Shown here: positions 1,246 through 4,724 of the stretch, in pieces
Numbering within the stretch: position 1 is the stretch's first letter
Layout: each line of letters starts with the position of its first letter
Source of the DNA: a virus
Taxonomy: Duplodnaviria; Heunggongvirae; Uroviricota; Caudoviricetes
IMG/VR virus record: IMGVR_UViG_2579778797_000005
Strand: one strand, 5' to 3'
DNA: 4,724 bases
Program-made: the position numbers and the translations under genes
The notes under the pieces: generated by a model
Told to the model about the DNA's origin: nothing
Seen by the model: only the letters and a program-made list of their open reading frames with translations
Database searches by the model: none

Positions 1246-2141
1246 TTTCCGCCTCCTGCATCCCGCCCACGTTTTGCAGCCAGAGTCCAGGCTGATGAAT
1301 GAATGTCTCCGGGCTTATCGCCGGTCATGCTGTTGCAGTGCCACAACGAGCCGCCCCACGTCACTGTATCGCCGGGGTGGTAGATTTCACCGGCTCTGAA
1401 CACACCGCGGTAGAGCATCACCGGCAGGGAAAATGTTTTTTCCGTACGCTGGCCACTGCTCTGCCGGATCACCACAGAGAACGACCGTTCACTAATCATG
1501 CTGACGTCAATATCCGCCACCCCGTCAACCAGGCATTCCCATCCCCGCATCCCGTGCGTTTTTTCATACGCCCGCCAGAGTCCGCCCTGGTGTGTGGCAT
1601 ACGTGCCCCGGGGAAAGGATTTTTGATCGTCAATGGCGGGGAGTATTTCCAGTGCCGTGGCATCACGCCCGTCCTGCGGAACCGGCAGGGCACTCACCGC
1701 ATCATTCACCGCCTGCTGCAGAACATCCGGATCGTAGTCACGACCGTCGCGCGGAACAGGGATATGGCTTACCGCCTCCTTCACCATCTGTTCAAGCATC
1801 GGACGCACATCATCCGGGGTGAGACTTTTACCGTCCGCTGGCTGCGGAATATTTGCGACCGCATCATTCACCGCCTTCTGCATAACATCCGGATCGTAGT
1901 CACGACCATCACGCGGAACAGGAATATGGCTTACAGCCTCCTTCACCATCTGCTCAAGCATCGGACGCACATCATCGCCCGTCACGCACTTCTGTAATAC
2001 CACAGACAGGGAAGCCAGTTTTTCTTCAAACATTTGTGCCTGCGCGGCTATTTTCCCCTCAAATGTGCGCTGTAAATCCGCCAGCACCGCAGCGAATTCT
2101 TCACCCAGCGCACGGATAATGGACAGTTCACGCTCTGTCAT
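1242..2141 (-). CDS. Repeat-containing virion-associated protein (299 aa): helical N-terminus, two tandem 54-aa Pro/Asp-rich repeats, C-terminal CBM5/12 (chitin-binding type 3)-like domain. Candidate head decoration or scaffold-like protein; function unknown
   Basis: ORF 1242..2141 (-), translationally coupled on both sides by ATGA overlaps (portal stop/its start at 2138..2141; its stop/connector start at 1242..1245). Residues 1-50 (MTERELSIIRALGEEFAAVLADLQRTFEGKIAAQAQMFEEKLASLSVVLQ) look helical/coiled-coil. Two near-identical copies of DDVRPMLEQMVKEAVSHIPVPRDGRDYDPDV(M/L)Q(K/Q)AVNDAV follow, with a PxPxDGxD sub-motif occurring four times. The C-terminal segment FRAGEIYHPGDTVTWGGSLWHCNSMTGDKPGDIHSSAWTL follows the ChtBD3/CBM5/12 consensus (AG-x-x-Y-x-x-GD-x-V-x-aromatic-x-G-x-x-aromatic-x-C ... 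P ... W-x-L). Product call is inference. Confidence 0.75.
   Translation of the reverse strand: MTERELSIIRALGEEFAAVLADLQRTFEGKIAAQAQMFEEKLASLSVVLQKCVTGDDVRPMLEQMVKEAVSHIPVPRDGRDYDPDVMQKAVNDAVANIPQPADGKSLTPDDVRPMLEQMVKEAVSHIPVPRDGRDYDPDVLQQAVNDAVSALPVPQDGRDATALEILPAIDDQKSFPRGTYATHQGGLWRAYEKTHGMRGWECLVDGVADIDVSMISERSFSVVIRQSSGQRTEKTFSLPVMLYRGVFRAGEIYHPGDTVTWGGSLWHCNSMTGDKPGDIHSSAWTLAAKRGRDAGGGK
1699..1976 (-). repeat. Intragenic direct tandem repeat: two 116-bp units (1699..1814 and 1861..1976), period 162 bp, about 93% identical (8 mismatches counted by hand)
   Basis: Direct comparison of plus-strand segments gcatcattcaccgcctgctgcagaacatccggatcgtagtcacgacc...catcggacgcacatcatc at 1699 and again at 1861. 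The period of 162 bp equals 54 codons and is in frame with the 299-aa CDS, giving the duplicated DDVRPMLEQMVKEAVSHIPVPRDGRDYDPDV peptide. Confidence 0.9.
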
Positions 2142-3502
2142 TTTCGCAGTATCCCCCTGAACATCGCCTTCACCGCATCACGCTCTGTTTCGCTTATGGC
2201 CTTATTACCGTCAGACGCGCCCTCCTGGCGTGTGCCTGACGACGTTTTCCCGGAAGACGCGAACGGATCCTCACGGGCATCACGACGGGACAGCGCCTCC
2301 AGACTGTAGTTCTGCTGCTGAAGATACAGTGCATCGCCTCCTGCCAGGGGCGGCAGATTCTCCCGTTTACGGGCCTCATTGGGCGTGAGAAGCGTATTTT
2401 TCACCGATTCACCCAGCGTTTTCATGCGACGTTCGCTGTCCATTCTCAGCAGCGTGGTGACGTCAAACTCCGTGCTCTCGTTTTCCCCTGTTTCCAGCGC
2501 CTCATCCAGTAACAGCTCAATGGACTCAATCAGCGTCTGCAGACACTGGGAATAATACTGCTGCTCCAGCGCCTCCACGTTGTCACTGGAAGGCGGCTGG
2601 CCAACGCCAATCTTGTAGGCCGGGACACGGAACACCGAACAGACAATTTCAGCCGTCATTTTCAGCTGTTCCACCGTCTGCGCATCCACCGGTGAAAACG
2701 TCGTGGGGTTATATTTCGCCCCGTTGCTCAGGATCGCCGTTTTCCCCGCATTTTCGCCGGTATACCCGCTGTCCCAGTTGCTCTTCAGTTTTTTCGCATT
2801 TTCTTCCGTTATACTGCCGGGGATCTCAATCACCCCGGACGGCCTGCCGCCATTTCTGAAAAAAGACGTCGAATTTTCCTGAATATGATGCCCCTGCGTG
2901 GCCGCCAGCCCGGCAGCATACACCGGCGGCAGCCCCACAAGCGGATGAAAAAAACAGTTAAACCGGTCGTGGATCACTTCCCTGGCAGGCACCGTCACCG
3001 CCTCCGTGATCCCGCAGTTCCGGTCCGGTGTAATGCGATAGAACACCTCGCCGTCATCCGCCACCAGAGGTTCAACCCGGCTCCAGTCCAGAATACGCAG
3101 TTCTTTGATCTGCCCCCGGGAGTTACGGATTTTCAGCACCACCGTATTGCCGTGACGCAGTTTGGCGTTCAGCCACAGTTCAAAAAACTGGATACGATTC
3201 TGCTGTGCATTGGGACGACGACAGAGACGGGCAATATCCCCCTGCCGTTTTTCACGGCGGATCCCCTGTGTATCGGTCTGCATCAGGCGCAGTCGCATTT
3301 TGGCGATATCCTGGGATATCAGCGAAATGCAAGAAAACACCGCATGAAAGGAGAGGACACTTTCCGGATCGGCTTTCACACCCTGCTGCCAGGCGCCAGC
3401 AAAGGGCTCAGCCACCGCCTGAAACAGGCTGGTCCAGCCCACCTCTTTTACATCACGTCCTGATTTCTGGTTTTTTCGGGTTCGCCGCAAAAGGTTCCAC
3501 AT
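2138..3502 (-). CDS. Phage portal protein (454 aa)
   Basis: ORF 2138..3502 (-). Hallmarks of the phage portal family: N-terminal VLSFHAVFSCISLISQDIAKMRL; central FFRNGGRPSGVIEIPGSITEENAKKLKSNWDSGYTGENAGKTAILSNGAKYNPTTFSPVDAQTVEQLKMTAEIVCSVFRVPAYKIG; C-terminal LLTPNEARKRENLPPLAGGD. ATG at 3502..3500 with GGAG 8 nt upstream (minus strand gatgcGGAGcatggcgaATG). Confidence 0.9.
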   Translation of the reverse strand: MWNLLRRTRKNQKSGRDVKEVGWTSLFQAVAEPFAGAWQQGVKADPESVLSFHAVFSCISLISQDIAKMRLRLMQTDTQGIRREKRQGDIARLCRRPNAQQNRIQFFELWLNAKLRHGNTVVLKIRNSRGQIKELRILDWSRVEPLVADDGEVFYRITPDRNCGITEAVTVPAREVIHDRFNCFFHPLVGLPPVYAAGLAATQGHHIQENSTSFFRNGGRPSGVIEIPGSITEENAKKLKSNWDSGYTGENAGKTAILSNGAKYNPTTFSPVDAQTVEQLKMTAEIVCSVFRVPAYKIGVGQPPSSDNVEALEQQYYSQCLQTLIESIELLLDEALETGENESTEFDVTTLLRMDSERRMKTLGESVKNTLLTPNEARKRENLPPLAGGDALYLQQQNYSLEALSRRDAREDPFASSGKTSSGTRQEGASDGNKAISETERDAVKAMFRGILRK

Positions 3503-3669
3503 TCGCCATGCTCCGCATCACGTTTCTTTTTCTGACCTGCCGGACGTCGCACTGTGATGTACTCCGCCTTCCCCAGGCGAACCAGCACCTCCGCACACGG
3601 CTGTGCCACATCACGGATATCCCCGGCCCGGGCATCATGCGTGCCCTGCAGATACTGGATTTTTGCCAT
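3448..3669 (-). CDS. Hypothetical small protein (73 aa) between capsid and portal genes; coding status uncertain
   Basis: ORF 3448..3669 (-) with ATG start (MAKIQYLQGTHDARAGDIRDVAQPCAEVLVRLGKAEYIT...). No good Shine-Dalgarno at the right spacing (the nearest GGAGG is about 25 nt upstream). Its 3' end overlaps the portal start by 55 nt in another frame. I recognise no family. It could be a small head/neck accessory protein or a non-coding intergenic region. Confidence 0.35.
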   Translation of the reverse strand: MAKIQYLQGTHDARAGDIRDVAQPCAEVLVRLGKAEYITVRRPAGQKKKRDAEHGECGTFCGEPEKTRNQDVM

Positions 3670-3699: not shown

Positions 3700-3713
3700 C
3701 CTCCTCATCAGAC

Positions 3714-4724
3714 TCAGCCGCCGGACGCAGTTCCGTAGTTCACACCGGTGATCACCGCCACCGCCGCGGTACGGCGACGACGCCAGTTGATCCAGCGCTC
3801 CGCACGGATGGCCACGCTGCCTGTCTGGAACATGGAAACCAGCTCCACCGGGGACGGCGTGGTACTGTCGCCGGTCGGCTCAGACTGCATTTCCAGTGAT
3901 GCCTCGCGGGACATATCCACTGCCACGCCGCCGTCATCCGCCAGATAAATATCCGGGGCATTCACCAGCACCAGCTGGTCACCCACGTACTGGGAGACAA
4001 TCACCGGCAGCCCCTGGAAGGAGCCACCCAGCAGGGTCATGTCCGGGTATTCCTTCTGACCCAGCGCATTTTTACGCATGGACAGTGCCAGGGCATTGGT
4101 GCTGGACATCAGCCAGATCGCACCGGTGGGCTGCAGGTTTGCTGCCACAAACTGTCCAAACGCCGCCTCTGCATCCGCATCCGGGTTACCGGTTGATGCC
4201 GTGCCCTTCACATCATGGGTGATGGACGCCGGGGAGACATCTGCCACTGCGGCTTTTTTCGGGTCCACAAAGTCTGTATCCAGACGCGCCACCACCGCTT
4301 CCGCCAGCGCATTACGGACCAGTGCATCAGCAGCCGGACTGGAAAAACGGATCAATTCTTCCGTCAGTACCGCAATGGCCGACACTTTCGCATGACTGAA
4401 GGTGATGGATTCAAAATCAAACTTCGTCAGGGGTTTTGCCTTACCCTCACCCACCCAGCCGGCAGCACCGCCGGACACCTGGGCGTGCACACGGATATTG
4501 AACGGCACCTGACGAAGTGCAGGGATCCCGCCCTGACCAAATCGCCCGATAATGGTCTGCGGACGCAGGTAATCAATAAAGTCCTGTGCGTATTCCTGAT
4601 ATTCAGACAGGCTGCCTGCCCACTGCGGATCCGTGGTGGTCCCCGCGCCCACTGCCGATTTCAGGACATGATGCAGACGACTGTCATCCGGATACTGACG
4701 ACGGGCCACTTCCAGGGCTTCAGA
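3714..4724 (-). CDS. HK97-fold major capsid protein, 5'-partial (frame open to the window end; at least 336 codons in window)
   Basis: ORF 3714..4709 (-) in the track begins at a GTG, but hand translation shows the frame stays open through 4724 (…SEALEVARRQYPDD…), so the gene probably starts upstream of the window. The C-terminal half (AIWLMSSTNALALSMRKNALGQKEYPDMTLLGGSFQGLPVIVSQYVGDQLVLVNAPDIYLADDGGVAVDMSREASLEMQSE…VELVSMFQTGSVAIRAERW) aligns in pattern with the HK97 gp5 C-terminal region as I recall it (…GLPVV…VEVSRED…ERLALA…). Stop TGA at 3716..3714. Confidence 0.85.
   Translation of the reverse strand, partial: SEALEVARRQYPDDSRLHHVLKSAVGAGTTTDPQWAGSLSEYQEYAQDFIDYLRPQTIIGRFGQGGIPALRQVPFNIRVHAQVSGGAAGWVGEGKAKPLTKFDFESITFSHAKVSAIAVLTEELIRFSSPAADALVRNALAEAVVARLDTDFVDPKKAAVADVSPASITHDVKGTASTGNPDADAEAAFGQFVAANLQPTGAIWLMSSTNALALSMRKNALGQKEYPDMTLLGGSFQGLPVIVSQYVGDQLVLVNAPDIYLADDGGVAVDMSREASLEMQSEPTGDSTTPSPVELVSMFQTGSVAIRAERWINWRRRRTAAVAVITGVNYGTASGG

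Follow-up and report, generated by a model that had tools for sequence, protein, structure and literature searches.

A capsid-before-portal head module is the standard layout of a long-sequenced group of lambdoid Escherichia coli prophages

Why would a major capsid gene be transcribed ahead of the portal gene? The question is raised by a 4,724-nucleotide stretch of viral DNA (IMG/VR record IMGVR_UViG_2579778797_000005; the whole stretch is here called the window), in which a gene for an HK97-type capsid protein (3714..4724, minus strand) is followed in transcription by a small open reading frame (ORF) and then by the portal gene (2138..3502, minus strand). A sequence-only reading of the window called this order noncanonical and took it as a sign of a rearranged or mosaic head module, an under-described phage lineage, or a satellite or an element resembling a gene transfer agent (GTA). 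The evidence presented below indicates that the window very probably covers the late operon from head to neck in a complete long-tailed lambdoid prophage of Escherichia coli, of the type found in the genus Pankowvirus.

Conserved order of the capsid and portal genes

Every long ORF in the window is on the minus strand, and all seven are intact. The order of transcription is capsid, a 73-amino-acid (aa) ORF, portal, a 299-aa ORF, the head-tail adaptor Ad1, the head closure protein Hc1, a gp10-like protein, and gp17, and GC content is even across the window (0.54 to 0.62), with no break in composition at the capsid/portal junction. Profile searches confirmed the two assignments on which the question depends, both above the Pfam cutoffs. 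The 454-aa product of 2138..3502 is an HK97-family portal that matches PF04860 over profile positions 2 to 321 of 321 (273.2 bits against a cutoff of 39.1; E = 3.9e-81) and PHROG families 2271 and 12, annotated “portal protein.” Its length is comparable to that of solved HK97-family portals (396 to 431 aa), and its sequence matches in the PDB include 9lbn_H (E = 1.6e-29), 8cez_A (3.9e-21), 8fql, and the portal of the Rhodobacter capsulatus GTA (RcGTA; 6tba, E = 1e-11). The product of 3714..4724 is predicted to be an HK97-type capsid domain from its match to PF05065 (53.7 bits against a cutoff of 24.2; E = 2.6e-14; profile positions 38 to 279 of 280) and to two PHROG families, 617 (E = 2e-129) and 10, both annotated “major head protein.” The arrangement described in the sequence-only reading, with capsid, small ORF, and portal in that order of transcription, is therefore correct.

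The segment that holds these three genes is widespread among phages. In the phage collection, 93 records match positions 2138 to 4724, 92 of them over at least 80% of the segment at 93 to 98.5% nucleotide identity, and among the matches listed nearly all of the records align over the segment in a single colinear piece. The matching phages are long-tailed phages that convert their hosts to production of Shiga toxin (Stx) 1a, 2c, or 2a, together with related phages, and include BP-4795, 2851, 1717, YYZ-2008, phi330, Lys8385Vzw, JLK-2012, and the WGPS series. The sequence-only reading would be refuted, by its own account, if many well-characterized phages had this exact order, and the first six of these do.

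The survey of the wider clade started from an alignment of three portals and a scan of one genome per bacterial species, which yielded 80 loci with portals 41 to 71% identical; neighboring proteins were mapped by tblastn onto stop-to-stop ORFs. The loci were selected by portal similarity, so that the counts describe one portal sub-family. They come from Alpha-, Beta-, and Gammaproteobacteria, including Enterobacterales, Morganella, Acinetobacter, Ignatzschineria, Halopseudomonas, Paraburkholderia, Caballeronia, Snodgrassella, Rhizobiales, Sphingomonas, Paracoccus, and various metagenome-assembled genomes (MAGs). The capsid gene is upstream of the portal gene on the same strand at all 75 loci where both were detected, and the order large terminase subunit (TerL), capsid, portal was found at 68 of 68. 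At the five loci without a capsid match, the upstream sequence is absent or holds no detectable match. Burkholderia phage vB_SBP39, with a capsid protein 39% identical, has the order small terminase subunit (TerS), TerL, protease, capsid, small ORF, portal, adaptor, head closure, and this order also fits the ORFs of Ralstonia phage YO098_5, whose portal is 41% identical. Among still more distant portal relatives (20 to 29% identical, for example in many actinobacteriophages), the portal is encoded by gene 3 or 4, right after the terminase, as in the textbook order.

Capsid before portal is thus an old layout that extends across the clade and is ancestral for it. The order is not new, inasmuch as a large group of lambdoid phages sequenced long ago has it as the standard layout. 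The sequence-only reading was right that it differs from that of HK97, lambda, and SPP1 and that it characterizes a lineage, and the literature that we searched holds no explicit description either of the order or of the protease-capsid fusion reported below in these phages; the genomes with this order have nonetheless been public, with annotation, for many years. The order by itself carries little weight: it is a stable, clade-wide version of the HK97-type head module, present in public phage genomes for some two decades, and it requires no new biology.

Genomic context of the head module

Relatives of the window in bacterial chromosomes were sought by megablast against 5,426 complete E. coli genomes. 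Matches were found in 1,252 of these, at a median of four places per genome, and 274 genomes have a place where the match extends over at least 80% of the window; the best full-length match is 97.1% identical. Two chromosomal loci (L001, the closest in E. coli, and L002) give the context in full. Upstream are lambdoid replication genes, the Q antiterminator, lysis genes, an HNH gene, TerS, TerL, and a capsid protein of 645 aa; from the capsid onward come the 73-aa ORF, portal, adaptor, head closure, gp10, gp17, major tail, and G/T chaperone genes, and then the tape measure, the L/K/I/J tail-tip genes, and a tail fiber. One of the two loci has an integrase gene adjoining dusA. Contigs that encode an identical portal protein, retrieved by exact-sequence look-up, have the same lysis, HNH, TerS, and TerL genes upstream, followed by the 645-aa protein and the 73-aa ORF, and continue downstream (for example, in contig L204) into genes for the extension protein that follows the portal, neck, gp17, major tail, chaperones, tape measure, and minor tail proteins.

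The presence of terminase genes upstream and tail genes downstream in L204, L001, and L002, along with the start of gp17 at window position 119, shows that the element belongs to the type of complete long-tailed lambdoid prophages and is not a satellite or a GTA. Three of the matching phages, YYZ-2008, 2851, and phi330, are classed in the genus Pankowvirus, and the window is similar and colinear to named members over the capsid gene, the small ORF, and the portal gene. By its head module the element is thus of the Pankowvirus type, an assignment that holds for the module, as 4.7 kb cannot settle the genus of a phage in a group so mosaic that the identity of one module does not fix it. Phages of this kind form virions: an induced Pankowvirus, phiSTEC799-Stx2c, has a head of elongated shape and a long tail and lysogenizes E. 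coli MG1655 (PMC12029490), and phi330 has been purified as a siphophage of that genus (PMC12502783). The supplement of the phi330 paper contains no proteomics for the long-tailed phage (PMC12502783).

Some of these prophages carry a complete OmpC-type porin gene among their minor tail genes (L001, 11314 to 12477; L204, 19198 to 20361), with the gene for minor tail protein L on one side and, on the other, that for a small tail protein encoded after the tape measure. OmpC is reported to be the receptor of the related phage phi330 (PMC12502783), and one may speculate that a porin borne by the prophage bears on superinfection exclusion.

Protease and capsid in one gene

The capsid gene runs past the edge of the window, and its product covers only positions 322 to 626 of the 626 positions of PHROG 617. 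The 336 residues encoded in the window correspond to residues 310 to 645 of the 645-aa protein of L001, with 334 of 336 identical. In that protein, Peptidase_S78 (PF04586) matches residues 48 to 152 (34.7 bits against a cutoff of 21) and Phage_capsid (PF05065) matches residues 386 to 635, while the linker between the two domains gives a weak coiled-coil signal; the same S78-capsid architecture is found on the contigs that encode an identical portal. The S78 domain thus shares an ORF with the capsid domain, on the part of the gene that lies outside the window. Searched against PDB sequences, the 645-aa protein gave one marginal match only (E = 0.0017).

Judged from these domain matches, the putative protease is encoded in the capsid gene, just past the window edge, and the scaffold would be part of the same gene. 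The protease and scaffold seem to be missing because the window holds only residues 310 to 645 of a 645-aa fusion. The sequence-only reading noted that no separate gene for either lies between the portal and the connector, and none does; it could not see that the S78 domain is fused to the capsid, and it left unmentioned the 299-aa ORF that occupies that place. For annotation, a “missing” protease or scaffold in these prophages is a false alarm, with both functions being part of the capsid gene.

Across the portal sub-family, protease and capsid form one open frame at 41 of 71 loci and separate frames at the other 30. They are fused at all of the enterobacterial loci examined and mostly separate in Paraburkholderia, Caballeronia, Acinetobacter, and Snodgrassella. 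The order of the genes is the same irrespective of the fusion, indicating that fusion or fission took place inside the clade without a change in gene order.

A fiber-like protein encoded after the portal

The 299-aa ORF (1242..2141, minus strand) begins with an ATG that overlaps the portal stop codon (ATGA). It matches PHROG 2271 over positions 616 to 859, as well as PHROG 1289. A homologue follows the portal at 63 of the 80 loci, as a separate ORF at 62 and fused to the portal at one. The database label of the protein is mostly “phage portal protein,” which these homologues bear because they are fused to the portal in some phages.

Three parts can be distinguished in the protein. The N terminus has a conserved coiled-coil helix of ~50 residues, which is the best-predicted part of the structural model (predicted local distance difference test score [pLDDT], ~80). 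The middle is variable and in E. coli and Klebsiella consists of 54-aa repeats, of which the window has two copies (162 nucleotides each; 1696..1814 and 1858..1976, minus strand; 94% identical at a spacing of 162) that were seen in a direct-repeat search and at the protein level; Tandem Repeats Finder reported no repeats in the window. The number of repeats differs among relatives, most of whose complete ORFs have 245+54n aa (245 to 515). In other homologues the stalk is a coiled coil or a long series of collagen triple-helix repeats (Pfam Collagen, E = 1e-66 in Paraburkholderia and 6e-46 in a betaproteobacterial MAG). The C terminus is a conserved domain of ~140 residues with a motif resembling carbohydrate-binding module (CBM) families 5 and 12; against PF02839 (CBM_5_12; cutoff, 26.2), the window protein scores 20.0 bits and a Morganella homologue 33.0, and six more of the ten homologues scanned have matches below the threshold.

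No PDB entry was matched when the 299-aa protein was used in a sequence search. The AlphaFold model is of low confidence (pLDDT, 60; predicted template modeling [TM] score, 0.28), and the matches that Foldseek found with it are to phage tail fibers and chitin-binding domains, at a TM score of ~0.14 relative to the query. The predicted architecture is that of a fiber, not of a protease or scaffold, and the protein is most likely a trimeric fiber or decoration-type virion protein with a carbohydrate-binding tip. We also considered an internal, portal-bound head protein like MuF or SPP1 gp7, which the position of the gene and its occasional fusion to the portal might suggest; it is not the leading idea, as the collagen repeats and the CBM-like tip favor an external fiber. 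This portal-adjacent gene is the one component of the module that is still uncharacterized and, together with the fusion described next, is the sole part that merits follow-up.

A guanine run at the portal/extension junction

Comparison of the junction with those of relatives reveals a run of five guanines (G5; 2153..2157 on the minus strand, C5 on the plus strand) nine codons before the portal stop. With G5, the portal ends nine codons later, overlapping the next ATG, so that the window carries the “split” allele of the portal gene. YYZ-2008, 2851, and phi330 have six guanines (G6), which bring the extension into the portal frame, and the “portals” of YYZ-2008 and 2851 are uninterrupted ORFs of 861 and 859 aa, respectively. 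A sequencing error was rejected as the source of G6 in YYZ-2008, since G6 is also present in 2851, in phi330, and in 41 IMG/VR contigs. The record of phi330 (L208, PV189401.1, 1226 to 3968) has G6, yet it is annotated with a 444-aa portal, a 376-aa ORF, and an 83-aa ORF, which implies further frame differences in the region, either real indels or assembly errors.

In IMG/VR, scans for the exact patterns located G5 in 76 contigs and G6 in the 41 mentioned above. The portal stop lies nine codons on in 76 of 76 G5 contigs, and 48 of 56 complete downstream ORFs have 245+54n residues. Among the 30 complete G6 contigs, 16 read through for those lengths plus nine codons and 11 more for 388 or 414 codons. 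The extension is thus kept intact in both states. The G5 haplotypes are varied, and their state is that of the clade at large; the G6 haplotypes form a tight group, and three haplotypes with identical 420-nucleotide flanks were found with both G5 and G6. These results indicate that the split state is ancestral and that the fusion is derived in a sub-lineage in E. coli, with occasional switching.

The junction also bears on whether the prophage is decaying, with a frameshifted pseudogene in place of a working portal gene, which of the alternatives to a complete prophage type survives best and is nevertheless unlikely. The Prokaryotic Genome Annotation Pipeline (PGAP) joins the portal and the next ORF into one pseudogene, “phage portal protein, frameshifted,” in L001 (19243 to 21503) and L002 (19242 to 21501), equivalent to window positions 1242 to 3502, and two phage records are labeled “portal protein, pseudogene.” In addition, 2851 and YYZ-2008 each have one uninterrupted ORF, and many prophages of Shiga toxin-producing E. 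coli (STEC) are defective. However, two ORFs are the typical state of the wider clade, the G5 contigs have a clean portal stop, with most of the complete ATGA-coupled ORFs downstream being of regular length, and diversity resides with G5 and not with G6. Furthermore, the 454-aa portal spans the whole Pfam profile and is as long as solved portals, the seven ORFs of the window are intact, and Lys8385Vzw, deposited as a complete phage genome, carries G5. As the clade is predominantly split, with 62 loci separate and 1 fused, and this state is the ancestral one, the pseudogene calls made by PGAP and in GenBank on G5 copies are probably artefacts of fused references. Through such calls, completeness tools probably take intact Stx-type prophages for defective ones.

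No canonical X_XXY_YYZ heptamer was found at the portal/extension junction. On paper, a −1 slip of tRNA-Gly on the G5 run, before a rare ATA codon, would yield the exact sequence of the G6 fusion. We put forward one further proposal only tentatively and regard it as doubtful: the post-portal protein may be a virion fiber functionally tied to the portal, with the G5/G6 run deciding whether the protein is made by itself or extends the C terminus of each portal subunit and, possibly, with low-level −1 frameshifting on G5. If so, Stx phages, which are medically important, would carry a carbohydrate-binding fiber anchored at the portal or neck, and the portal pseudogene calls would be wrong.

Other readings of the locus

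A recent local rearrangement, or a mosaic junction, that put the capsid gene before the portal gene in this element only is very unlikely. Lambdoid phages are highly mosaic, and the order is unlike that of HK97 and lambda, as the sequence-only reading stressed when it proposed a rearranged head module; against this, the segment is colinear and in one piece in the 92 phage records, the same order recurs at 75 of 75 loci from three proteobacterial classes and in the Burkholderia and Ralstonia phages, and the junction has no break in composition. Even less credible is a helper-dependent element with head genes and borrowed tails, whether a satellite like the capsid-forming phage-inducible chromosomal islands (cf-PICIs) or a GTA, as had also been proposed: the window taken alone does show only head and neck genes, in a nontextbook order, with a portal that matches that of RcGTA, but this match is at the family level only, bases 1 to 119 already encode the gp17 tail completion protein, and in each of the contexts examined the neck genes are immediately followed by tail genes. 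The identical-portal contigs have lysis genes upstream and run on through major tail, G/T chaperone, tape measure, and minor tail genes. The loci closest to the window belong to full lambdoid prophages, equipped with genes for integrase, replication, Q antiterminator, lysis, and a J-type tail tip, and the gene order differs from that of RcGTA.

Several points weigh against our own reading of the window as part of a complete Pankowvirus-type prophage. The window comprises only 4.7 kb, its best full-length match in E. coli is 97.1% identical, and its flanks are deduced from identical-portal contigs and near-identical loci. Many such prophages in STEC genomes are defective, and the 80 loci were chosen by portal similarity. 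Cleavage of the fusion and a scaffold role for residues ~160 to 385 are suggested by analogy with HK97, and the presence of the 299-aa protein in the virion is a prediction only.

The 73-aa ORF and the neck genes

The 73-aa ORF (3448..3669, minus strand) belongs to PHROG 829 (E = 7e-39), a family with no function assigned, and overlaps the annotated portal start by 55 nucleotides. It is annotated in the same slot, between capsid and portal, in E. coli relatives and phages; tblastn placed it there at most enterobacterial loci and at two Acinetobacter loci, and in vB_SBP39 the slot is taken by a small, 58-aa ORF. Either the ORF plays a conserved part in assembling the head or the real start of the portal is further downstream.

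The remaining genes, all on the minus strand, form the neck. The 108-aa product of 919..1245 is a head-tail adaptor Ad1, or gp6-like connector (PF05135, E = 8e-8; PHROG 40, E = 9e-30), followed by the 116-aa head closure, or head completion, protein Hc1 (559..909; PF05521, E = 1.9e-17; PHROG 25) and by a 148-aa HK97 gp10-like neck or tail completion protein (116..562; PF04883, E = 8e-10; PHROG 5, E = 1e-34, Neck1/tail completion). Last comes a gp17-type tail completion (terminator) protein, whose gene runs past the window edge; its first 39 codons (1..119) give an N-terminal translation identical to that of L001 gp17 (WP_000133388.1). The Virfam Type 1 neck is defined by a series of Ad1, Hc1, x, and Tc1 genes after the head genes (PMC4362835), and the series of Ad1 (PHROG 40), Hc1 (PHROG 25), PHROG 5, and gp17 in the window is of this SPP1/HK97-like type.

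Proposed assembly of the head

By analogy with HK97-type assembly, the 645-aa fusion protein would co-assemble around the portal dodecamer, after which the N-terminal S78 domain would remove the protease/scaffold part, leaving a mature capsid subunit of ~260 to 330 residues. Terminase would then package DNA through the portal in an HNH-assisted, presumably cos-type reaction, and Ad1, Hc1, and the gp10-like protein would seal the head and dock the gp17-terminated tail, again as in HK97. The 299-aa protein would normally be made separately, via ATGA translational coupling to the portal. Nothing in the position of the portal gene within the operon is a sign of an altered assembly pathway, and no unusual mechanism is implied.

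Comparison with known systems

The nearest known systems are the Pankowvirus-type phages, which, beyond the nucleotide identity of 93 to 98.5% over positions 2138 to 4724, have the same order from TerS to the neck, with the 645-aa fusion, the 73-aa ORF, the portal, and the neck genes. They differ in the number of repeats in the post-portal protein, which has 299 aa in the window, 245 aa in Lys8385Vzw, and ~405 to 407 residues within the fused portals of 2851 and YYZ-2008, and in the guanine run, which is G5 (split) in the window and G6 (fused) in 2851, YYZ-2008, and phi330.

With the head module of HK97 (TerS-TerL-portal-protease-capsid-gp6-gp7-gp10), the window lineage has in common the families of the portal, the S78 protease, the capsid, the gp6-like adaptor, the head closure protein, and the gp10-like protein, and the logic of assembly is presumably shared as well. 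In HK97, however, the portal gene directly follows TerL, whereas here it follows the capsid gene, the E. coli lineage encodes protease and capsid in one ORF, and two genes are additional, the 73-aa ORF and the fiber-like gene.

Fusions of protease, scaffold, and capsid in one gene have been described for actinobacteriophages with small genomes, namely, Microbacterium cluster EE, Arthrobacter clusters AN, AX, and FE, clusters CW and DM of Gordonia, and Rhodococcus phage RRH1 (PMC7302621). As in the window lineage, a single gene is present, with no separate protease or scaffold gene. The likeness is one of architecture: hosts and sequences are unrelated, and those phages are lytic with genomes of ~17 kb, whereas the phages considered here are temperate lambdoid phages of ~50 kb. 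The G6 fusion has a parallel in the portal-MuF fusions of Microbacterium clusters EA and EB and some Arthrobacter phages (PMC7302621), in that a gene following the portal is fused to the portal C terminus in some lineages and separate in others, and annotations as “portal and MuF-like fusion protein” occur as well. However, the 299-aa extension has no match to Mu F, and its coiled coil, repeats or collagen, and CBM5/12-like domain suggest the architecture of an external fiber rather than that of a protein inside the head.

The satellites of the cf-PICI type carry HK97-type head and neck genes, as do GTAs of the RcGTA type, and the window resembles both in this respect. In contrast to both, the module analyzed here lies within a complete lambdoid prophage, with tail, lysis, replication, and regulatory genes on its flanks.

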